Part shown: in pieces, positions 5,445-64,000 of the stretch | Position numbering within the stretch: the first letter of the stretch is position 1 | Layout: the number at the start of each line of letters is the position of its first letter | Assembly: GCA_035221665.1 (NCBI GenBank) | Contig: CM069135.1 | Location: forward strand, 75,082,001 to 75,146,000 | DNA length: 64,000 nt | From: Okamejei kenojei | Taxonomy: Eukaryota | Direction: 5' to 3' | The notes under the pieces: model-generated | Seen by the model: only the letters and a program-made list of their open reading frames with translations | Told to the model about the DNA's origin: nothing | Databases searched by the model: none | Position numbers and translations under genes: made by a program

Positions 5445-5932
5445 CATCTGCCACATCTTTGCCCACACTCCCAATTTATCCAACTCCTTCTGCAGAATCC
5501 CTGCCTCATCTACATTACCTACCCCTCCACCCATCTTCGTATCATCTGCAAACTTGGCCACAAAGTCTTCAATTCCCTCATCCAAATCATTGCTATACAA
5601 TTGCTCAGCACTGACCCCTGCGGAACACCACTAGTCACTGGCAGCCAATCAGAAAAATCCCCCTTTATCCCACTCTCTGCATTCTGCCATCCAGCCAACC
5701 TGCTATCCATGATGGTATATTTCCTCTAATACCATGGCCTCTCATCTTTTTCCGCACTCACATGCAACACCTTATAAAAGACCTTCTGAAAATGCAGGTA
5801 AATAACATCCTGCCACTAATTACCTCAAAGGATTCCAACAGATTTGTCAGGCAAGATATCTCCTTCATAAAACCACGCTGACCAGCCTATTTTGTCATGT
5901 GCTTCTGTATTTGGAAACCTTATCCTTAATAA

Positions 5933-6242
5933 TCTATCTATCTTCTATCCATCTACTATCTATTTATCCATCTTCCATCCATCTACTATCCATCTATCCA
6001 TCTTCTATCCATCTACTGTTTAGACATCCATCTTCTATCCATCTACTATCTAGCCATCTTCTATCCATCTACTATCTATCTATCCATTTCTATCCATCTA
6101 TTATCTATCTATCCATCTTCTATCCATCTTCTATCCATCTACTATCCATCTATCCATCTACTATCCGTCTATCCATCTTCTATCCATCTACTATCCATCA
6201 ATCCATCTTATATCCATCTATCTATCCATCCATCTATCCATC
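5933..6242. repeat. (TCTA/TCCA)n compound microsatellite
   Basis: Directly visible. A second block lies at 7254-7359. Confidence 0.95.
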
Positions 6243-7253
6243 TTAATATTGGCCAAAATACTGCTATTTTAAAATGGAGGATGTTTGCATCTGCAGGGCC
6301 TGCTAGGTCAATTGACATGTAAAGCTGCAAGCTTCGAGCTGGTGCCAGGAAGTCTACATCCCAGATGGAAATATCAGATAAGGTGAGGTCCAGATGTCCT
6401 CTCTATTGTTAAATTTTATGAGGACTTTGCAGAGAAACCCAGAGGTGTTGCAGATGCATTAGCAGGATTGGCTGTGCAGAAGGGTTGTAAATACTGTTTA
6501 TAATGTTGCAAGGTGTTTGTGTTACTGTTTGATGATTGGCTGAAGTATAAGCCTTGTTTGAATTGTTTATACTCCCCAGGAGAATGTTGCATTACCTGGG
6601 TCAACTGATTTATTTCCAGAAGCTTCTGTAGAAACATTGTAATGGGGTGCTTTGTAATTGGGTTGGGGAACTGTCAATAACACTTTAATCGATATGTGTG
6701 ATTGGATTTCAGGGGCCACCACCCCCATGTAGATCTGCCCCACATGGTTCAATGACCTATAAAAGGTAACCCCCACGAGGTTCGTTGTCGATCTTCTGGA
6801 GGAGCACTTGTGACTGTGAAACCTTTTGGAGGTGTCTACTTGCACAAGGCTGAAGGGCTTCGACAAGCAGAGATAAGGATCGATCCCTCGATGGTTAGGT
6901 ATTGTGTAGGGCAGTGGTTCTCAACCTTGTTTGCCCCATGCACCCCTTTCACCATATGTCAGAATGTCATTCCCCCACAGCAGCAGGTGACTGATGCATA
7001 CTGAATTTTGTGCCGCCCTGGGGAGCTCAAAGGCAATAAAAAGATCAACATTCTAACAGTTTGAGTTTGCTAATCTGTGGTCCCAATTCCCCCCCTGAAA
7101 ACCTGAAATCCCCCTCCCCCCAGGGGGAATTCCCCCCTGGTTGAGAACCCCTGGTGTAGGGAATTTGTTATTGTTTCATAAAATAAAGTTTTGTGGTTCA
7201 GTGCTTGAACTAGAACTAGACTAAGGGGGGTTAGCCCTAGGAGCATAATTACA
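6243..7253 (+). mobile_element. Solo-LTR-like sequence nested in the Helitron 5' microsatellite
   Basis: Several ATTGG boxes, TATAAAA at ~6758, AATAAA at ~7182, and an end of ...AATTACA. The 5' boundary is uncertain (TGTAAT at 6638, or a degenerate start near 6243). No clear TSD. Confidence 0.45.
6912..7153. mobile_element. hAT (Charlie-like) non-autonomous element/MITE, 242 bp
   Basis: TIRs CAGTGGTTCTCAACC / GGTTGAGAACCCCTG, with a perfect 8-bp TSD GTGTAGGG at 6904-6911 and 7154-7161. Confidence 0.9.
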
Positions 7254-7898
7254 TCTATCTATCCATCTATCCATCTATCCATCCATCTATCCACCTATCT
7301 ATACATCTATCTATACATATATCTTCTATATCTATCTATCTATCCATCTATCCATCTAATCTAAACATAAATAAAAGTCTGATCTTGTGCTCTTCTGGTT
7401 TGCGGGGTTTTTCTATTTGTGCAAAAACAGTACGTGATAGCACTACGATATGTTGCCAGGTTACGCACCGTTCTCCTGTGCTATGAGTGCAACAAGTTTC
7501 ATTCCGATCGGTGGTATATTGTAAAAGTTATTGAGGATTAAAACTCTTTAAAACCGCGCATGGGCAGATTACTTCAGTCAGCGCCACGCAGATTGGTCTC
7601 TTCTCCTGTTAGTCAATGCCATGGCCAGGGTGGCGACGCCCCTTCCTGCCCCACCGGCGGCGGCCTGTCCCGCCTCATTCACAAACTCCTCTCTCCCTTC
7701 CCCACAGTAATTTGTCTATCGTCTCCCCCACCATTGGTGGCGGCCGCGGTTCAGTGGAGGCCCAGTGGAGGCCCTGGTCCTGTCTCTCTCTCCCTCATCA
7801 CTCACCCCTCTCCCCTGCCCACCCTCTGCGGCAATGGCGGTCCCATCTACCCGTCCCCCCGGTCCGTCTCCTCTGCCGCCGCCGTTGCGGTAACTCAC

Positions 7899-7979
7899 CC
7901 TCATGGCCTTCTCGGAGGAGATCTGTTCCACCAACTCATTGAAACTCGTGGTGCCCACCGTGATGAACACTGGCTCCAT
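7899..7979 (-). pseudogene. alg13: Captured ALG13 first coding exon inside the Helitron
   Basis: 81 nt encoding MEPVFITVGTTSFNELVEQISSEKAMR, followed by gtgagt. This matches the ALG13 N-terminus (human MKCVFVTVGTTSFDDLI...). No further ALG13 exons were recognised. Confidence 0.85.
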
Positions 7980-8088
7980 CCCCCTCCCCCAGCGGCCCGG
8001 CGGCAGCAGCGAGCAGGCAGGCAGGCACGGGCCGAGCGGCGGCAGTGGGTGGTTGGACAGGACGGGGAGTGTGCAGAGTGGTCGAGCA

Positions 8089-8241
8089 NNNNNNNNNNNN
8101 NNNNNNNNNNNNNNNNNNNNNNNNNNNNNNNNNNNNNNNNNNNNNNNNNNNNNNNNNNNNNNNNNNNNNNNNNNNNNNNNNNNNNNNNNNNNNNNNNNNN
8201 NNNNNNNNNNNNNNNNNNNNNNNNNNNNNNNNNNNNNNNNN
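8089..8241. other. Assembly gap (153 N)
   Basis: Run of N. Confidence 1.
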
Positions 8242-9119
8242 CTAAACATGGTCCAATCTTCATCATCAGGATCTAAACCACAGCTAACAATGAATGACCT
8301 GTGGAGGAAGGAACTGCAGATGCTGCTTTTTAGGGAGGGAGGCACTGAGGGTAGGGGATAGGGAGGGATTGGGGAAGGAGAGGGGAAAGGTCCTGTGGAG
8401 GAGGAGGGTGGGGGATTGAGGAAGGGGTAGGGAGGGAGAGGGGCAAAAGTGGGGGAGGCGAGAAGATTGGGGTAGTAAGGGGAAAAGAGAGAGAGGAGTA
8501 GGGGAGGTAGTGAGTGGGGAATAGAGGGAGGAGGGCACTTGTCAGGAGGGATAGTGGGGGATAGGGGAGGTGAGGAGTTGGTGATAGGAGAGGGTACGGA
8601 GGGGAGAGGAGTTATTGAGGGAGGGAGGGAGTGACTGTGGTTAGAGGAAAGGAGAGGGAGGAATTGGGGAGGGGATGAGGAGAGGGGAAAGAAGGGATAG
8701 GGAGTACTGAGGGATGAGGGGAAATGAGCCGCGCCTGCACAGTTGGGGGCTATGTGTGAGTGGTGGAATATTGCGTTGGGGGGACGGGTTGCATTGGAGG
8801 AATGGGTGAGTGGTGCAATATCGCATTGGGGAACGGGTTGCGTTGGGGGACCAGGCCTCCCGTGTGACAGGGACCCAACGGGTCCCACTTAGTCTAGTGG
8901 ACTCTAAAATCTTTCCAACCACTGAAGTCAGGCAAGCCAGCCTCTCGTTTCCCCTCTTTTGCTTTGCTCCCTTCTTGAATAGCAGAGCAACACTTGCAAA
9001 CTGGGGAAGTTCTTCAACTGGGAAAATTCTATACCATTTCTTCAACCTGGTTGCATCTAGCAGTTCTCTGCAGGGCCTCTCGGAAACCTTGATCAATCAC
9101 TAACTAATATGGAACGCTA

Positions 9120-15562: not shown

Positions 15563-16711
15563 TTAGACCTCAAGGTCATCTGGTCGAGGCCTGCTGCTTC
15601 CTCTACTGCTGGCTCTACTGGGAGGCCTCTGTTCCGTGAGACCAATTGGTTCCAGTTCTGTAACAGATGATAGCTTTTGCATGGTTGGATGTTCACCACG
15701 GAAATCAAACGCCTGTGCATGGCAGTTGGAAATGGTGCTACCAGCCTGACCGATCCGGTTTTGTTCTGTGCTATAATTTGCCCAGTTTTGTTCATTAGCT
15801 TGCTTATTGTAGCTTCGGCAAGAGGACATATTCCTGTCCCCGGTAGCAAGCTTGTATCCAGGAGGGGACATGGGTGCAGTTGGCGCGGAACACCCATTGA
15901 AATAGGCGTACTTCAATGCAGAGGCGTCTTTTAGAGTATTCAAGCCCATTTTTTGAGAGTCTTGAAATAAATTTCTATTCTTTTTGACATGGTCAGCTGT
16001 ACTTTTGAAGCCGATGTAGAACAGCTCTGCCACATTTAACATAGCTGACACAACGGATACCACCAGCATGAATATAACAAAGATGGTCTTCTCTGTGGGT
16101 CGTGACAGGAAGCAGTCTACTTTGTGTGGGCATGGATACCTCTCGCAGGTGTAAATAGCATTCAGTATGAATTTGAAATCATAAATGCACCATTGAGTTA
16201 ATATAAAAGCCACTTCGAAAATTATTTTAAAGATTATACTGACAGAATAAGTGCGCAAGAGGGATCCTTTAATTTTAATTCTGCCCTCCTCCTCCAGACC
16301 ATACTTAATTTTCTTTAGTTCTAATTGTTTCAAGTGCAGACCCACATCTTCACCACGTTCTTGGAGTGTCTTCAAATATGATTCCTTCTTAGATATTTTC
16401 TTCTCTTTGTGAGAGATACGAAAGACGTGGGCGAGGTAGACCAAAGTCGGTGTGGAGACAAAAATAAACTGAAGGACCCAGAATCGAAGGTGGGATATAG
16501 GAAAGGACTTGTCGTAGCAGACATTACCACAACCTGGTTGCAATGTGTTGCATGTGAACGCAGATTGTTCATCATTCCAGGCTGATTCCACCGCAGTGCC
16601 CAGCACCAAGAGACGGAAAATGAAGAGCACAGTGAGCCACACTTTACCTCCCGGAGTCAAATGTGACTGTACTTTATCCAATAGCTTTCCAAGGGCACTC
16701 CAGTCACCCAT
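15563..16711 (-). CDS. gja1: Gap junction alpha-1 (connexin 43)-type protein, 382 aa, single coding exon
   Basis: ORF begins [15 protein letters not shown]. It has the connexin Cys motifs ([14 protein letters not shown]; [12 protein letters not shown]), a PPGY motif, RASSR repeats and the C-terminal PDZ motif RPRPDDLEV typical of Cx43. A splice acceptor tttttacag| lies 16 nt upstream of the ATG (exon starts at 16727). Confidence 0.95.
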
Positions 16712-17679
16712 CTTGCTTTAGCTTTGGCTGTAAAAATAAGAGAACGACTGTGTCAATAGATTGTGAAGTTGCCAGATATGTTGGTTCATTTTAAAATATA
16801 GCTTAATTTGAATTTACATACTTTCTTTAATCATGATTTGACTGGTATGTATATTTTCAGCTCAACAGTGGAGTCAAAACCATTAAGCATTAATAACATT
16901 TCATGTATGTAGCCATTTAAAATGTGGTAGTGTAAAAAAGTTATGAGTAATTATTTGAAAGCAAACAAACCAATCATTTAAAGTGCCAGTCCTTTTAAAA
17001 TCAAAGTTTATCCATTCCGACAATTTAAAAATCTGAAGATAATTTGTTCTTTCAATGTATCTACTCAATTTGCTCTGAAATGATATGTAATTATATTTTA
17101 GTAAGCACTCATAAATATAATAAATATTTACAACAACCTAAAGTCATCTTTTACATAGCAACACATCCCATAATAATTCATGTGGGCATTAAAAGCAAAT
17201 GACACATCCATATAACGGTCTGATAATCAGGTGATATAGATATAGGGTTCTTTTTAAAACATCAAAGGAAAAAATAGTGGGTAGGAGGAGAGCTTTGGAA
17301 ACAAATTCCTGGGTTTTGGGCTTTGGCTGTTGAAGACAAGGCCAATTAAGGTGGAACACCAAAATCCAGGGATGAGCAACAGGCCAGAACTGAAATGGAC
17401 AAGTTGGGCCGAAGGGCCTGTTTAAAAGTTGTATGACTCTATGACTTCAGTGAAATTACAAAGAGAAAAGTAATGCCATGGATAAACTAAATGTTAAAAG
17501 ACAGCACCTTAACCAGGAGCAAGCAGTCAGGTGATGGGTGAACTATATTTGAGGTGACAGGGGTTTTGATGCTTGAACATAAAAAAATAAAACAGTGCAG
17601 GTACAGGAACACATCCTTCAACCCACCAATTATGATGCCAATTTTAAACTAATCCTATCTACGACATATCCCTCTATAT

Positions 17680-32777: not shown

Positions 32778-34364
32778 CTAGGCTAAGTGGGACCTGTTGG
32801 GTCCCTGTCACAGGGGAGGCCTGGTCTCCCAATGCAACCCATTCCCCCAGGCAATATTCCACCACTCACCCATTCCCCCTAACGCAACCCGTTCCCCCAA
32901 CGCAATATTCCACCACTCACGCCTATCCCTCTTCCATCGAATCCACCCCTCCCTCTCACCCTCTCCCTCTACACCCCCCTCTATCCTACCTTGCCCATCA
33001 CCCCGGACCCCTTCTACCACCCTCTCTACCATCCTGCACTCCACCACCCCTCTACCCCACTCCCTCCCTCTCTTCCCCCCTCCCTCCTCCCTGTCTCTCC
33101 CCCTCCCTCCCTCATCTCCCTCTCCCTCTCTCCCCTTCATCCCTCTCCCTCCATCCCTCTCTCCCTCCGCATCCCTCTCTCCCCCCTTATCCCACTCTCC
33201 CCTCTCCCTCCCCCCTCCCTCCGTCTCCTCTTCTCCCTCCCCACCATGCTGTGGGCCGGGCTGCGGCGCTCCCTCTCTCCGTGTAACACTGTGGTGTGTT
33301 AGGGCCACCCCGGTGTCCACGCCCATGGGCAGGAGCCGCTGGAGCGCGGGACCCGCGGTGTCCTTCGCCAGCGGGTAGACAGCGGGGCTCAGTGCTAACC
33401 CCCCTATATCCCTCTACTACCCCATCTCCCTCCTCCCCATTTCCCACATCCTCCTCCCCTCACTCCCATTCCCTGCCCCAGCACCTACCCAGGTCGTAGA
33501 GCAGCGCCGGGGCCTGGAACTAGGCCTGGTTCTCATACTCAGCCCGGCCCTGGCAGTAGGCGGCCGAAGCACCCGTGGACGTGGGCCTCGACAGAGCTGG
33601 GCTCGCTGTGCTGGGGGCGGGGTGAGGGTGGCGGGCGGTGAGCCAGAGCTGCCTGCTGAGGAGGATGCGGAGGTTGTGCTGCAGAAAGGCGGCGGCCGGG
33701 CGGCCCCCGAGGCGCTGGTACATCTTGACCCAGGCCCTGGGCTTGGGCCCGACTCCAGCCCTCAGCTCGGCCACCACCTGGGCTCCAGTCCAGGCCCCGA
33801 CTTCATCTCCAGGCCCGTCCCTGACTCCGCACCTAGGCTCGTCCTTGGTTCCAGCCCAGGCCCAGTCCCCGGGCTCGGCCCGCAGCACCACCCTCCCCAC
33901 CAGGTACAGGGCGGCCACAGCTCCTTCATCATGGGGGCGAGGCTGCTGCTTGGGGCGGGGGTGTTGCTTGTGGCGGGCTGCTTGGGGTGGGACGGGGGGG
34001 GGGGGGGCTGGGCGGCGCTGGGCTGCGCTGCTATGCGTCCCTCTGAAATTCCTGTTGGAAACCTCTGCCGTGATGGCGCAGGAAGGGGTAGACCGTCCCG
34101 AGGAGTGACAGGGAAAGCGACTAATCTGTGCGGCGCTGACTGTCAGGAGAGATCGGTCTGCGCATGCGCGATTTTTAAGATTTTTAAACCTCGCCAACTT
34201 TTACGACATTCAACCAATTGGAATGAAACTTGGCGCACTCGCAGCACAGGAGAACGGTGAGTGAACTGGCGAAAAATCGTTGCGCTATAGCAAACCGTTT
34301 TTGCGCAAATAGATGGACAACCTAACCAGAAGATAACAAGATCAGAGTTTTAGTTATGTATAGA
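32778..34364 (-). mobile_element. Non-autonomous Helitron, same family, carrying different GC-rich cargo
   Basis: On the minus strand: 5' A|TCTATACATAACTAAAACTCTGATCTTG, and a 3' hairpin GGGACCCAACAGGTCCC followed by ACTTAGC CTAG|T. The terminal segments are homologous to 7360-7600 and 8750-8897. Confidence 0.88.
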
Positions 34365-35805
34365 TGATAGATGAGCTGTTCTCTAATATTGCCACCTGTA
34401 CATTAGAGTAAGATTATGAGGCACTTTATTAAAAATATCAGATTTATTTATTCATTGCTCACATTTATAACACTGAAGCATTGTTTCAAATGATCTTATC
34501 TTATAATATCAATAGAAAATTAAATATTTCCAGATTCTTAAGATGTTATGACATAAATTGGTCTACAACTGAAGTGATTTCAGAAATTTTGGATCGAACA
34601 TGATGTAACTTCACGATTTCTGGCCATATTGATCTCTCTCCTTTTCCACTTGCACTCACCATTGAATCCCAGGGCACTTTAATAATTCCTGAACTTAAGG
34701 TTCGGATAGACATTGTAACTGCCCCTTAGATGGCACCTAGCACAGCTAGGCTAAGAAGAATTGGGACATTCAATTCAATGGTTATATTGACCCTCATTAA
34801 AATGATAGGTTTAACTAAGCATTTTGTTTTTTTCTCTACATTGTAGAAGCACAGAAATATAGAAAATAGGTGCAGGAGTAGACCATTCAGCTCTTAGAGC
34901 CAGCACCGCCATTCAATATTATCATGGCTGATCATGCAAAATCAGTACCCCATTCCTGCTTTCTCCCCATTTCCCTAAAAGTTAACGGAAATTTAAATTA
35001 ATTAATGGTAGTTTAATGTGCTCAAATGTATGTCATTTTAAATTTGTTTTCAATAATGTTTTCATTTTTATATTAACTAAATCAATTTAAGCTCAGAGAT
35101 TTAAAAAAAAGCAGACCTTTGATAGCTTAGCCCTCAGTATCATAGTGATATCCATTGTCTACAGCCTTGCGATTTGTGGCGCAGTCCACTCATGGTAGGG
35201 TCACAGAACCACTATCAAAGTCATTGGGAGCTAAACGGGTTAATAAGATTAACCTGTTTCAGACAACAAATGAGATCAACGGCAATTTGATCAATTGGAA
35301 CTGATATTCAGATCACTCAGAAAATACATTAAAAAATAAGGCAGAAACTGTAATGAGTCAGCATTAATATCTATCAGCATAATGATAACAGTGCACTGTC
35401 AGCTTGGTCAAAACACAGTTTAAAACAATTTCTCACACCATTTTGCCACAAGTGAACAATAACTTCAGCAGAAATCTACAGAACAAACAAATTGCTAGCA
35501 TGGATGCGGTATCATTATGAATCATACGATTCATCAGTTGAAAAATGAATTAGTGTCAGAAAGTTGTACATTTTGGTCAGTTGTCTCCTGATGACATATG
35601 GATTTCTGGCCCTTTTTATCATGGCTGAAGAAACTGCTTAATAATACATTGTAAATTGTTCGTCAGGTTTACAAGCCTAATACAAGAATATAATCATTGT
35701 TACATTTCTAGATTCTTGTTCATGAATTGGTTTGTTGTATTATTTCAGCGACTTATGTTCTGGAATAAAGGCAGATTAATTTATTGAAAAATCATACCCA
35801 TTTTA

Positions 35806-36684
35806 TTATCCTGCATTTTCTTTAATTTCCTCACTACCTTTCTCAATCCCATAATTAATGGTATTCTGAGACTTGGGATCCTGGCTATTGCATGGTTCTG
35901 TACTAAAAGGCTTCACTTTAGAACCTGATAGAGGTAAATCTTCAGTCAGCTTTGATTTATCAAAAGACTCAATAAATTGGGGATGGCCATGTTTTTGATA
36001 TTTCTGCGTTGAAATAGTTATTTGCTTGAAAACAAGGTAAACTATTTCAGCTATATTTAGAAGAAGTGACACACAAGCAACAGCCAGCATGAAAATGATG
36101 AAGATGGTTTTCTCTGTTGGACGTGAGATAAAACAATCTACGGTATGTGGACAGGGATATCTACTGCACACATACATGGGATCCAAAGAAAAGCCATAGA
36201 GATACCATTGACCCACAATGAAACCAATTTCAAGCAGAATTTTACACAAAACATGTAATATGTAGGTAAATAATAGGATTCCTTGTATTTTTACTTTTCC
36301 ATCCCTTACTATGTACTTTGATGTCTTCTTAACTTTTCTGAAGTTTTGTTCTTCAATTAATTTGTGTTGTCTTCTCTCCAAGTGGACAACATGTAAAGCA
36401 TGTCCAAGGTACAGCAAGGTAGGTGTTGAAACAAAAATGATCTGAAGAACCCAAAAGCGAATGTGAGAAATTGGAAAAGCTTTGTCATAGCAGACGTTTT
36501 CACAACCAGGTTGGCGTGTGTTGCAAAGGAAGCCAGACTGTTCATCACCCCAAACCTTCTCTGCAGCAGATCCAAGCAATAAGATCCTGAAGATAAATAA
36601 TACGGTGAGCCAGATTTTCCCAATCACTGTAGATTGTGCCTGGACTTTGTCCAGCAGTCTTCCAAGTAGAGTCCAATCCCCCAT
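35806..36684 (-). CDS. Second alpha-connexin, Cx32.2/Cx32.3-like, 292 aa, single coding exon
   Basis: [33 protein letters not shown] has both extracellular Cys motifs ([14 protein letters not shown]; [12 protein letters not shown]), a short cytoplasmic loop and a short tail. Acceptor ttggcag| lies 14 nt upstream of the ATG. The subtype is inferred from length and from linkage to gja1. Confidence 0.92.
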
Positions 36685-39080
36685 TCTTCAAAGTATACCT
36701 GCCAAATTAAACACATGCACAACTAAATGTACCTGCATTACAAACTGGATGTTAATCTTGTACTTTTTCATATAAGACTTTGGGATGGATATTTGCGAGA
36801 GCTGCCAGCCCTCACCTGTTATAACATCAACAAGGAAGCCATGGAAGCTCTGGAAAAATGCTCTAAATGATGAATGAAGATAGACCATGTGGAAATTCAG
36901 CCCCTGGAATATTTTCAACGTCTTTGAACTCTTTTTATTTTACGTTTTAGGTGCAGCATTTCACATATGTCAAAAATAATTTTACTGAATCAAACTTAAT
37001 GGATTGCTAAATTAGCAAATTTTAGAGATGGGGACAGGGAAACGGGACAAGTTAAAACATTTACATGAACCGACCGCGGTGGCTTTTTTGAGCCACAATT
37101 AATTACAAATTGAGAATAAGAATTTCAAATATAGGTCAAATTAAAGGTCAAGGATGCTGCGGTTTCCTTTTTCTATTCTTCAAATACTGGAATACTCTGC
37201 ACAACCCTGTAGGAGATTCTACATTTTTGTAAAACAGCAGCAAAGTAAGAAGGCAACTCAAAGGTAATTAGGGCAATTAGGTAGGGGTGAGTAATAAAGA
37301 TAGGTCTTCATAGCAATTGCCACATTCCATAAAATAATAAAATTACTGGTAACTGAGGTGCTGTACCTTGCTTATGAATGAGTATGACTATTCCACTATA
37401 CAAGGTATTCGCCTCAAGGTATGCAGCCTGCAGATGGGGACATTACAATAGGGCAGTTACCTAGTTTATGCAAGTCCTCCCTAAGTGTTTGCACACATTC
37501 ATACATAAGAACAGACCTGGATCGTCCTGGTCCATTGATCACTGCAATCAGTTATTAACAAAATGTATTCTTGTGATATTCTGTCATTAATGTGGGAAGA
37601 AGTTTCCTCTGTCAGAGATTATGTTTATTTTTATGGCACAGTAAGCACAAAATACAATTGATCCATCTATAATTTCACCAAACATTATAAACCAAAGCAT
37701 TGGTCTCAGATTTGGCTTAAAGGTTCTAGAAAGGACATACAACCTGACACTTGCCCAGAGAGAAAATCTATAATTTCATCAAAAGTTGCATCGTATCCAC
37801 AACTGGTCAAAAGGTTTTTCATAATTGTATTTTTAAGAAGGAACTGCAGACGGTGGAAAAATCAAAGGTGGGTAAAAATGCTGGAGAAACTCAGCAGGTG
37901 AGGCAGCATCTATGGAGCGAAGGAATTGGAGACGTTTCGGGTTGAGACCCTTCTTCAATCTGAAGAAGGGTCTCGGCCCAAAACGGCACCTATTCCTTTG
38001 CTGCATAGATGCTGCCTCACCAGCTGACTTTCTCCAGCATTTTTATCTACCTTCATAATTGTATTTGATCTGTTTACAAGAAACAAGGGAAAATGTTTGA
38101 ATATCGAACAACCAAATGAAAGCCAAAGGGCTTAATGTGAAATAATGTCAATTCACTCGAGTTGTTTTTATAAATGTTAAAATTAAATATGGCAGCCTGA
38201 TATCCCTGTAGCTCCTTCAATGAAAATTGTTTTTTTTAAGATTGAATAATCATCTAACTGTAAAATGCTTTGAAAATGTGTCAAGTGTAGCAGCTAGAGT
38301 GAAACAATAGACAATCAAACACAATAATATACTGCACAGACGATAAAGCATACAAAATCCTCCCAGGGTTCAACTAGTCAGATGGTGACAGTGAAGACCA
38401 TAACACAATAATGGCAAAGTCTAACTGATATTTAATCATTAAGGAAGTAAAAGATTTGTAAAAATGATCTGAAGTAAAGTAGGAACACCCATTGATCCAC
38501 CTGACATTGTGAACAGCTGTATCATTGATTAAAAAAACACACAGGGAAATGACAATGGTCTGACTTTGCTCAATAAATTGAAGGCAAATTGTTAGAAAAG
38601 TAGAAGAGCTAGCAATCTTGTCATTCTACCACAAGTATTAAGTAGTGATAGACTGCTCCTTTGCAGCCAAGCTACTTTCAAATTATGCCAGAAATCAGAT
38701 ACAGTCTAAACCTTCCAAACCTTCCAAAACTGACTGAATTTAGTGGCTAATACAGCTGCTCCATTTGGGTTTGGTCCCATCTCATGTGGAATAGACAACT
38801 TCTCTCACCATAGACAAAGAAGTACATAATTTAAGCTCGAGAAGAATTACATCATGTCTTACAAATACAATTATGCAAGTGCCAACTTCACAGTAGTGAG
38901 AACTACCCAAACCTGCATTCTTGACTCTATGTTATGAAATGGATAAAGAGGCACTAAAGAAGCTAGAGAAAAGATTTAAACATATTCAGAAATGAGAGTC
39001 ATGGGTATCAGAGATGAAGCAATTAAACTCGATAGAGTTTACAAGAATGAGGGGGTCCTCATTGAAACATACAGAATAGT

Positions 39081-41611: not shown

Positions 41612-42137
41612 TATATATACATATACAAACACACATATAAGTCTGTTTTGTTACAGAGTTGCTATAGCACGGAATAGAGTGCAAGGAGTGAAGCTTGTAA
41701 TGTAGCTTGAAATTTAAAAAGAGTTGTTTGGGAAAACCTATTAATTTGCAGGTGCCATGCTTGAGATTAGATGGCGTTTGTAATCTGTCTGTTAAATGGG
41801 GCGTCAGCTTTCTAGCATTTAAGGCAAGTTGTCAAGTTATATATTACTTATAGATTTGTGTAAGGCTAGCAGGTTAGAGTATATATTTTTTCAATTTCTT
41901 GTAAAACAATGTTTGATAAAGTATGTAATTCTCCGCGTATCCTGCTGATATTGATAACTGTAGATGTTCAAATAAATCATCCCAATCATTAGCTAGATAA
42001 CAAAATCTATATATTTGGAGGTTGAGATTCAGTATTAATAATGGCAGGAGAAACAACATAAGATATGGACTGAATAGACTTATTAGGACAAACACTATAG
42101 TTCAATGGATTTATTGTTTTATCTAAATAGTATCTAA

Positions 42138-43303
42138 CTAGACTAAGTGGGACCTGTTGGGTCCCATGTTCACACGGGAGGGCTGGTCCCCCGACGCAAT
42201 ATTCCACCTCTCCACCAATTCCAATATTGGTGGCCAGTGGGGGGGCTTTCTGGAGCGCTGGTATGCGTTCTTGGGGTGGCAGCTCAGTCCCTCAAGCCTG
42301 ATGTGCTGGCAGCTCACTCACGGCTGGTGGGCTGGCTGTTGACTCATGGCTATTCCTTGAAATTCTCTTTCAAGCAGGGTGCAAGGCCACCAAATTCAAA
42401 TCCATTTTCCTACCATTTCTGGCAGGGTGGAAGGCCACCAAATTCATGTGCAGTTTCTTACCATTTCAAGCAGGGTGCAAGGCCACCAAATTCAAATGCA
42501 GTTTCCTACCACTTCAAGCAGGGTGCAAGGCCACCAAATTCAAGTGCAGTTTCATACCACTTCAAGCAGGGTGCAAGGCCAAAGAATTCAAGTGCAGCTT
42601 CATACCATTTCATGCAGGGTGCAAGGCCGCCACATTCAAATGCAGTTTCATACCATTTCAAACAGGGTGAAACCACCATAAAACCACCATAAGACCACAC
42701 AAAACACCAAACTCGCAGTTCAGTAGACATTCAGTTTGTTCAGTTTATTCACAGCTCAGACAGCCGTGACCTCTCCCTCCCCCAGCATGCAGAGACTGAA
42801 CCACACGCACACTTCCGGGTTTTATAACCCCTCCCCCTCCCACCGGAAAAGGTTCGGCCTTCATGACAGGAGAGAGATACTCAACATTTTTTAAACACTA
42901 ATAACACTTTTATTTTTCATTGATGGGAAGAATCCACTGCACCTGCTGAGTGGAGGGAGACTGAGTAAGATGGCCAAAAATCACAGCCATAAGTAATAGT
43001 GTTTTATCTAAAATCAATATACAATTTCACTTCAAGCCAAAGCTCCCAAGCCACCATTTGCAGTAGTGCCTTTTCACTTCAAGCCAAAGCACCCAAGGCA
43101 CCATTTGCAGTAGTGCATTTTATTATTAACATTAATATCTCTCTTATTTTTCATCGATGGGAAAAATCCTCTGGTCCAGGAAGGCAGAGGGGGGCTCTGT
43201 GCGAACTGGCCAAAAGTTATGGCCGTAGATGGTAGCGTTCTCTCGGAAATCATGGCACAGCGAGCCAAAAGCGGTCAAGATCAGATTTTTAGTAATATAT
43301 AGA
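42138..43303 (-). mobile_element. Non-autonomous Helitron with an internal 48-bp tandem array
   Basis: On the minus strand: 5' A|TCTATATATTACTAAAAATCTGATCTTG, with the same 3' hairpin and CTAG|T. A 5'-subterminal-like segment is repeated internally (~42890-43020). Confidence 0.85.
42369..42668. repeat. 48-bp minisatellite, about 6 copies
   Basis: Unit approximately ttcaagcagggtgcaaggccaccaaattcaaatgcagtttcctaccac. It appears as a 16-aa periodicity in the ORF track. Confidence 0.9.
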
Positions 43304-62304: not shown

Positions 62305-63639
62305 GGGAGGAGGAGGAGGAGGGAGGGGGAGGGGGAAGGGGGGGACAGACAGACAGACAACTGAGCACACAGCCAAATACTCCTGTGCAGATGGTCATTG
62401 AGGAAGAACTGTTGCCAATTGGCACCGTTTGAGCTCTGCTGATGAGAAAGCCGTGAAAAAAGTTGCGTAGGAAATGACTTTATGTGCAATGAGATCATAT
62501 TTCTATTGCGTGCTAATTTGTGAAGCTAAGTGTTCAAATGTTGGAAATGTTACATTCTACTGTAGTTTGACTTCAGTGCCTTCACTGTCAAAAGAAATTC
62601 ATTGAAAAAAAGCAATATCATGATATCTTCTATTTATTCTGAAGGATCAGTAGTCTTCTGAAAGGAAACATTTCTTGACCTTGATCCATCAATTTATTTG
62701 TACATGAGGTACTGCAGATGTTATAATCTTGAGCAAAACACAAATAGCTGGAGGAACTCAGTGAGTCAGGCAGCATCTGTGAAGGGAATGGATAGCACCT
62801 TTCAAACCGGTCAATTTATTTGCACAACTTCTGTGGACACTGTCAACTTCATGTCGATTCATCATGTTTGTCACTTGGGAATTGCAGGCTGCACTCCCCA
62901 TTCTGTTGTGCGATGTAGTTCCCATCTAATTCTCTGCCAAATCAATTCTCATGGTATACCCAGTTTCACATTGCCTGTGTTCTCCTCCCTCCTCCCTTGG
63001 GGAAAAAAGTGCTTTCTACATGATAACTGTAGTGACCGTTGTCACTCGACCAGAGATGTGCTTGTAATAAAAAATCACAATTGACCAATAGATGAGATAC
63101 ACCTGGCTTGTGAATCGCAATGACCACTTTTATTGGATGAAAATAAATATACATTCAGATCGTTCCATTATTAACACTCACATTTCATATGATTAGAGGT
63201 ATTTGGTATAGAATTATAATAGAATAGAAAGTAGATTTTTGGTCAGGATATATCTGATGATCTTAGACAGTTTGTGCAATAATGTGCAGGAATTCTGAAT
63301 CGACTTTGTCTTATTTTATTCTGTGCAATAAGTTTATATTTGGATAATGTAAAGCTAGCACATTTGGAAACTATGGTGTGATGTTTTGTGACTGATAATC
63401 TTGTATGCCTGCCAGAGAAAAAAACATAGAATGGAATGCATTTATGAAATACATCATACATTATGTGATCGGCATGTATGGAATCCTTTCCTTGAACTTT
63501 ATAAATAAGTATTATTTCTCTGAACATAGTCTCTAGTATGGGATTTACTGAGTTAGGCCTTGATGATTTCAGTCACTCTACCAAGAGAGTTAACTAATTT
63601 AACTTTTGACATTAACTGATCTATCTTTGTTGTCCTCAG

Positions 63640-64000
63640 GTGCTACAAGTGGGATTGGTAAAGCCTATGCTGAGGAGCTGGCTAAGCAAGGCATTGATCT
63701 GATTCTTATTAGCCAAGATCAAAACAAGCTGGAAGCCACAGCCGCTGCCATTACAGAAAGGTTTAATGTTGAAACCTATATAATCATAACTGATTTTACT
63801 AAAGGACGCGAGATTTACCAACCAATTCAAGAAGCTCTGAAGGATAAGGAAATAGGCATTCTGGTGAATAGTGCAGATGTGCCTGCTGATTATCCACAGT
63901 TTTTCTTAAATATTTCCGAGGACAAACTCTGGGATCTTATAAATGTAAATATTGCTGCAACCAACATGATGATCCGCATTGTGTTACCAGGAATGGTACA
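63640..64000 (+). CDS. hsdl1: HSDL1-like second coding exon (continues beyond the window)
   Basis: After acceptor tttgttgtcctcag| the frame joins in phase to read (G)ATSGIGKAYAEELAKQGIDLILISQ...KDKEIGILVNSADV...EDKLWDLINVNIAATNMMIRIVLPGMV. This completes the Rossmann TGxxxGxG motif across the intron. Confidence 0.92.

Follow-up and report, generated by a model that had tools for sequence, protein, structure and literature searches.

A non-autonomous Helitron1 family carrying a decayed first exon of ALG13 in the skate Okamejei kenojei

We analysed a 64,000-nucleotide stretch of the Okamejei kenojei genome (hereafter the window) and found a copy of the first coding exon of ALG13, with its splice donor, inside a Helitron. 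Our main reading, which we hold at a probability of about 0.9, is that this element is one of more than 200, and likely about 440, non-autonomous Helitron1 copies that carry roughly 500 bp of the ALG13 5′ end, probably owe their movement to a Rep/helicase partner sharing their ends, and are likely non-functional. The features on which this reading rests are collected in Table 1.

Table 1. Elements and captured segments in the window (positions counted from its first letter) and the parental ALG13 exons on contig C13
Feature	Coordinates	Strand	Remarks
CR1 LINE fragment left of the Helitron	5500–5932 (start approximate)	−	reading frame runs across the empty site
Non-autonomous Helitron1 (HLE1) insertion	5933–8897	+	TC at 5933, CTAG at 8894–8897; flanked by A at 5932 and T at 8898, target not duplicated
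First part of the 5′ (ATCT)n-type microsatellite	5933–6239	+	other copies begin with similar tracts
Solo LTR nested in the microsatellite	6240–7253	+	unrelated to the capture
hAT-like MITE inside the LTR	6912–7153		15-bp inverted ends (14/15 match); 8-bp target duplication
Remaining microsatellite (to 7358) and conserved 5′ arm	7254–7615	+	arm common to sister families
Segment largely specific to the ALG13 family	7616–7807	+	source not found
Captured start of ALG13 intron 1	7808–7898	−	donor gtgagt at 7898–7893; C13:63825488–63825582
Captured ALG13 coding exon 1	7899–7979	−	27 codons; 72/81 nt as in the parent
Captured ALG13 upstream DNA (5′ UTR, promoter side)	7980–8329	−	ends in a SINE fragment; aligned to C13:63825983
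3′ arm	8330–8897	+	purine-rich tract shared with ALG13-less sister elements; hairpin 8870–8886; CTAG end
Same CR1, right of the Helitron	8898–8958	−	61 bases tested
Sister Helitron with SAC3D1 cargo	32778–34365	−	same termini; much of SAC3D1 exon 1, donor (33488–33483) and intron start, in sense
Parental ALG13 exon 1	C13:63825663–63825583	−	3.3 kb from exon 2
Parental ALG13 exon 2	near C13:63822298	−	98% identical to Leucoraja ALG13 (P0002)
Parental ALG13 exon 3	C13:63819685–63819575	−	from Pfam search

On the minus strand, an ATG at 7979–7977 opens 27 codons that are followed directly by gtgagt, as an initial annotation made from the sequence alone had described. The piece is short, and searches with it alone said little: Pfam PF04101 gave a weak match (E 0.036, profile positions 2–23), and a PDB sequence search with the 27-residue query, which is too short for that purpose, returned no match. 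A Pfam search of the genome led instead to an ALG13-type exon, exon 3, on contig C13, away from the window, and we examined 80 kb around it. Exons 2 and 3 at this locus exceed the Pfam cut-off (E 5e-07 and 3.5e-08), and since exon 2 is nearly identical to that of Leucoraja and the 27 residues encoded by exon 1 agree fully with the Leucoraja protein, C13 holds the real ALG13 gene, the single parental locus with downstream exons that had been predicted. Intron 1 of the Okamejei kenojei gene begins after codon 27, and contigs from public runs of related species that we guess to be RNA (X1, X7, X8 and X4) join exon 1 to parental exon 2 at the donor. On the strength of this parental locus (exon 1 at C13:63825583–63825663), sequence comparison confirmed that the window’s 27 codons and gtgagt are a decayed copy of ALG13 exon 1, bearing out the identity first proposed. 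The earlier description of the copy as exact was overstated: it differs from the parent at 9 nucleotides and at 6 of 27 residues (21 identical). Against the consensus of its own family it has eight differences, four of them at CpG, and the two substitutions already attributed to CpG decay (V to I and D to N) are both CpG transitions from that consensus.

Two further observations were made around the parental gene. One contig of run X4 (on L043:4580) joins ALG13 exon 1 straight to exon 3, and skipping of exon 2 would shift the frame. Intron 1 also contains an array of GC-rich tandem repeats (L043:3700–4420) beside or within the captured region.

An open frame followed by a canonical donor is what a genuine first exon would look like, so the window could in principle hold the gene itself, or an assembly mis-join. 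We regard this as vanishingly improbable. The true exon 1 lies on C13, 3.3 kb from exon 2, with the same 27 residues as Leucoraja, whereas the window copy has six substitutions and hundreds of siblings of the same arrangement; the C13 gene and these siblings together rule the reading out. At a functional gene exon 1 is followed by exons 2 and 3 at one locus, an arrangement that the window lacks: far from being a single-copy exon spliced to an exon 2 downstream, the window exon is multicopy, and exons 2 and 3 are on C13. The gap at 8089–8241, at which a joining of unrelated loci had been feared, is spanned in other copies (L002, L003 and L018), which align unbroken to about C13:63825490–63825983 across the part that is N in the window, so that the fear of a mis-join falls away.

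The cargo of about 500 bp (C13:63825488–63825983) consists of exon 1 flanked by about 320 bp of upstream DNA on one side and about 95 bp of intron 1 on the other. It is colinear with the genomic parent, intron and upstream DNA included, and lies between the element’s termini. These limits recur from copy to copy, and the upstream end falls inside a SINE upstream of ALG13, of which the window copy keeps a fragment (8254–8329) that is 91% identical to the parent. The captured parental stretch is a CpG island (GC 0.72, CpG observed/expected 0.84). Because intron and upstream DNA are present and exon 2 is absent, capture was from DNA and not from mRNA, as the initial annotation had proposed from the retained intron start. 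A processed ALG13 mRNA retroposed into a Helitron is thus highly improbable; retroposition into Helitrons is known in bats, as far as the accounts consulted describe it, but the retained start of intron 1 and the upstream DNA running into a SINE refute a processed retrocopy here, where joined exons were not seen and exon 2 is missing.

We next consider the carrier. In-silico removal of 5933–8897 restored the CR1 reading frame at an A|T junction with no duplication, so the placement of a Helitron within a CR1 stood, although the Helitron proved larger than the span first assigned to it. Its hairpin, with a stem of 7 bp, stops 11 bases short of the element’s end, is followed by CTAG and is conserved in the copies; by itself it is not exceptional (z −1.81, 11 of 200 shuffles folding as well). 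The 3′ end could be located within the fetched flank in 23 of 36 ALG13 copies, 21 of which have T as the next base, and the same base follows the 3′ end in 32 of 38 sampled elements. At the other end, A precedes TC in 78 of 90 elements chosen by a 5′ motif, with microsatellites blurring the rest. By these structural features the window element fits the HLE1 definition of HELIANO as outlined in PMC11417382, with which it shares the 5′ TC, the 3′ hairpin and CTRR, insertion between A and T, and termini held in common with Rep/helicase elements; the skate family differs in its variable (ATCT)n tract at the 5′ end. Assignment to HLE2/Helentron, which has short terminal inverted repeats and a T|T target, fails on the A|T target and the TC and CTAG ends.

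Genome-wide we found 101 matches to the Helitron Rep family, and at five of the ten best loci the same hairpin 3′ terminus lies 3–5 kb downstream; at one of these (L069–L070) a similar 5′ end is present as well, some 10 kb upstream. None of these ten loci is an intact autonomous element, all having broken or short frames, so we infer from the shared ends that a Rep/helicase partner was the likely mobiliser of the element.

Within the carrier, the order of nesting at the locus is CR1, Helitron, LTR, MITE. An arrangement of two tandem Helitrons was dropped once 6240–7253 was recognised as a solo LTR. The LTR family is multicopy (2540 first-look candidates, of which the best 40 were scored), the hAT-like MITE is absent from the other LTR copies compared, and some of those copies are followed by what we take to be primer-binding-site-like sequence. 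For the approximately 190 bp of 7616–7807, the best score against parental intron 1 equalled the shuffle maximum. Elsewhere in the window, a further 3′ end belonging to this Helitron superfamily lies at 42137–42199 on the minus strand (92% across 63 bases).

To gauge the size of the family, we used a 24-mer across the exon end and donor, which occurs at 214 genome sites with at most one mismatch, the control giving none; these sites and the siblings of the same arrangement bear out the many Helitron-embedded copies that had been predicted. Among copies chosen by their 5′ arm, 14 of 29 match the 24-mer, which yields a recapture estimate of about 440 copies, a rough figure with a range of about 320–710. 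Copy samples throughout consist of top-scoring copies. The DNA search (713 candidates, best 40 scored, other copies 79–89% identical) and the protein search (457 candidates, best 150 scored) are not copy counts. An exact 27-mer of the 5′ motif occurs 569 times in the genome. Of the 90 such sites taken first, all on contigs C1 and C2, 6 carry ALG13, one carries SAC3D1 and 83 carry neither, so the ALG13 family is a minority within a superfamily whose members probably number thousands. One locus contains two ALG13-carrying copies some 500 bases apart, of which the second (L005:3–555) is the more decayed.

The copies have decayed neutrally. Across 61 copies, transitions at consensus CpG sites run at 0.179 against 0.038 elsewhere, a 4.7-fold increase. 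In the exon, 159 of 224 changes are non-synonymous where 149 are expected under neutrality (dN/dS about 1.2); this count uses 36 of 55 copies with a full-length exon, leaving out protein-selected copies and likewise 19 with indels or poor alignment. The donor GT is kept in 25 of 29 arm-chosen copies, as fits neutral loss at about 5% per site, and the ATG, the open 81-nt frame and the GT are kept together in only 8 of the 29. In exon-selected copies the exon looked better conserved, which was a selection bias: the effect is reversed in arm-selected copies. CpG-biased, neutral change across copies is in keeping with the decay of non-functional copies first claimed for the window, and the CpG decay points to methylation of the copies. 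Since the copy tree is star-like (external length 8.93 against 1.07 internal, 57 tips), the 5′ arm has a median non-CpG divergence of 6.5% (59 of 61 copies) and the decay is CpG-biased and neutral, the data fit a single burst from one master element, followed by presumed methylation and neutral decay.

A hint of the age of the capture relative to the host species comes from codon 24, which is K in the Helitron family, R in the ALG13 of Okamejei kenojei and Leucoraja, and K in the proteins of Pristis, Mobula and Narcine. Helitron-type copies are also present in contigs of two related species (organisms B and C). Taken together, the K at codon 24 and these copies hint at a capture older than the split of these species; had the master element itself changed, the K would look the same.

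How the cargo entered the element can be approached through sister elements, which have the 5′ arm (7359–7615) and the purine-rich 3′ arm (from about 8332) in common with the ALG13 family and lack ALG13. Because the sisters share both arms without the cargo, we somewhat favour break repair inside an existing element over end bypass followed by deletion. The cargo presumably entered once, into an existing non-autonomous element, most likely when a break there was repaired with ALG13 DNA as template; one master would then have amplified in a burst, its copies would have been methylated and decayed, and the window copy would later have received the solo LTR and MITE. The host-to-arm junction has a 2-base overlap, weak evidence as to mechanism. 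Under end bypass, a Helitron in ALG13 intron 1 would have read through that gene’s 5′ end and halted at a second, upstream Helitron, whose start was later removed by an internal deletion. This route is the less probable of the two and still a serious contender: it has been shown experimentally for bat Helraiser, an element whose preferred targets also include CpG islands and promoters (as described in PMC4778049), and for one capture in bats the two ends are both present at the parent (as described in PMC4224331). Against it, the junction lies inside the sisters’ 3′ arm with no second 5′ terminus there, and within 80 kb surrounding ALG13 the single Helitron terminus is about 48 kb distant from the captured stretch, with none near the capture in 20 kb surrounding SAC3D1 either. 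The missing ends at the skate parents are weak evidence, because flanking ends were likewise missing at 26 bat parents and found at 3, by the account in PMC4224331.

SAC3D1 is the cargo of a second Helitron in the window. In this sister element much of SAC3D1 exon 1 is present, internal deletions apart, together with the donor and about 55 bp of the intron; the parent is at C28:31550366–31554170. The interior of one such element (copy L126) matched SAC3D1 (P0001) with E 3.7e-31, Pfam gave nothing useful on the SAC3D1-like frame in the window, and the cargo is multicopy, the best 150 of 248 candidates having been scored as matches. Longer exon or SAC3D1 captures reaching C28:31552977 were set aside as an unrelated CR1 in the parental intron. 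The parent’s exon 1 (G000:C28:31550590–31551110) contains GC-rich coding tandem repeats, longer than in P0001. The commonest interior among the sisters is a GC-rich stretch followed by GTGAG, present in 32 of 44 elements in which the anchor was found; in L171–L260 it lies about 250–700 bases after the 5′ end and is followed by a pyrimidine-rich tract. This interior is possibly a third captured first exon; a search for its source returned 24 candidates, none at E 10 or better.

Some copies, the window’s possibly among them, might serve as portable promoter–ATG–donor cassettes spliced to host exons further downstream, in the manner of bat HelibatN3. The window copy keeps its ATG, open frame and gtgagt, and its CpG observed/expected ratio is 0.69 (parent 0.84, whole window 0.38). 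Contigs cover Helitron-type copies in runs X4, X7 and X8 (related species, guessed RNA), and the bat precedent, as described, adds to the case. We nonetheless consider such a role unlikely, as the exon decays neutrally, the retention of the GT fits neutral loss, and the window copy sits about 7.6 kb downstream of a connexin-43-like stop with no host exon evident between the copy and the window’s left edge. No acceptor for its donor was evident within the window. Among the matches listed, loose contig ends at the donor belong to ALG13 exon 2 or 3 and to no other gene; contigs break at branch points, and these ends are hence silent on splicing from the copies. Contigs of runs X15, X17 and X19 gave no cover, and a public-run search with the parent’s 5′ end returned 20 runs, with small shares only and none recorded as RNA. 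The ALG13 copies are thus likely decaying without function, as judged from their substitutions, and pooled neutrality is compatible with a few co-opted copies.

Among the contigs of run X4, a deep one of 1948 bases from organism B covers window positions 7763–7984; it represents a Helitron-type copy in which the donor is unspliced and the sequence upstream of the ATG differs. As for host genes, we take 15566–16717 (minus strand) to be an intact connexin-43-like ORF of 384 residues from stop to stop, 35809–36687 (minus strand) to be a second connexin ORF of 293 residues, and 63603–63998 (plus strand) to be the start of an HSDL1-like exon. The SAC3D1 Helitron shares its strand with the two connexin ORFs and lies between them, some 16.8 kb upstream of the coding exon of the connexin-43-like gene.

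By its structure the skate element closely parallels HelibatN3 of Myotis lucifugus, which, as described in PMC4224331 and PMC4778049, carries the promoter and 5′ UTR of NUBPL together with its first exon and a portion of intron 1. Both are non-autonomous Helitrons that took a gene’s 5′ end with ATG and donor from DNA, with a bias to 5′ ends, and both reached hundreds of copies (hundreds or about a thousand in the bat). They differ in host and gene and in the length of coding sequence, 27 codons against 6 in HelibatN3, and of the two it is HelibatN3 for which exon trapping in cell culture and transcript starts in bats are described. Heli1Xen1 of Xenopus laevis, according to the description in PMC12001565, is likewise a Helitron1 family of a non-mammalian vertebrate that captured gene 5′ ends, the source of 17 of its 19 captured CDS fragments. 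It is young, with 64 insertions and at most 17 copies per fragment, whereas in the skate a single cargo is present in more than 200 copies, with about 6.5% divergence, and no intact autonomous copy was seen among the ten loci examined. To the bat and maize precedents cited in the initial annotation, Xenopus laevis can be added (PMC12001565).

In the literature, repeat libraries and supplements being outside our scope, we found no account of Helitron capture in skates or sharks. The class of mechanism is already known, the skate lineage is new and the window copy looks inert. With this capture, cartilaginous fish join bats and Xenopus as vertebrates in which Helitrons have taken gene 5′ ends, with copy numbers near bat levels and two independent cargoes in a single 64-kb window. 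In skate genomics, the hundreds of exon copies derived from ALG13 and SAC3D1 are a practical concern, as they can lead gene annotation, read mapping and methylation analysis astray. Since parents and cargo-free sisters are both at hand, the skate also offers an independent system for testing the preference for 5′ CpG islands and models of capture. More tentatively, and with appreciable doubt, we suggest that skates may host a bat-scale Helitron1 superfamily that repeatedly took first exons lying in CpG islands of housekeeping genes (ALG13 and SAC3D1, probably with a third, donor-bearing exon in its commonest form), scattering thousands of promoter–exon–donor cassettes, some of which may now start or splice into host transcripts.
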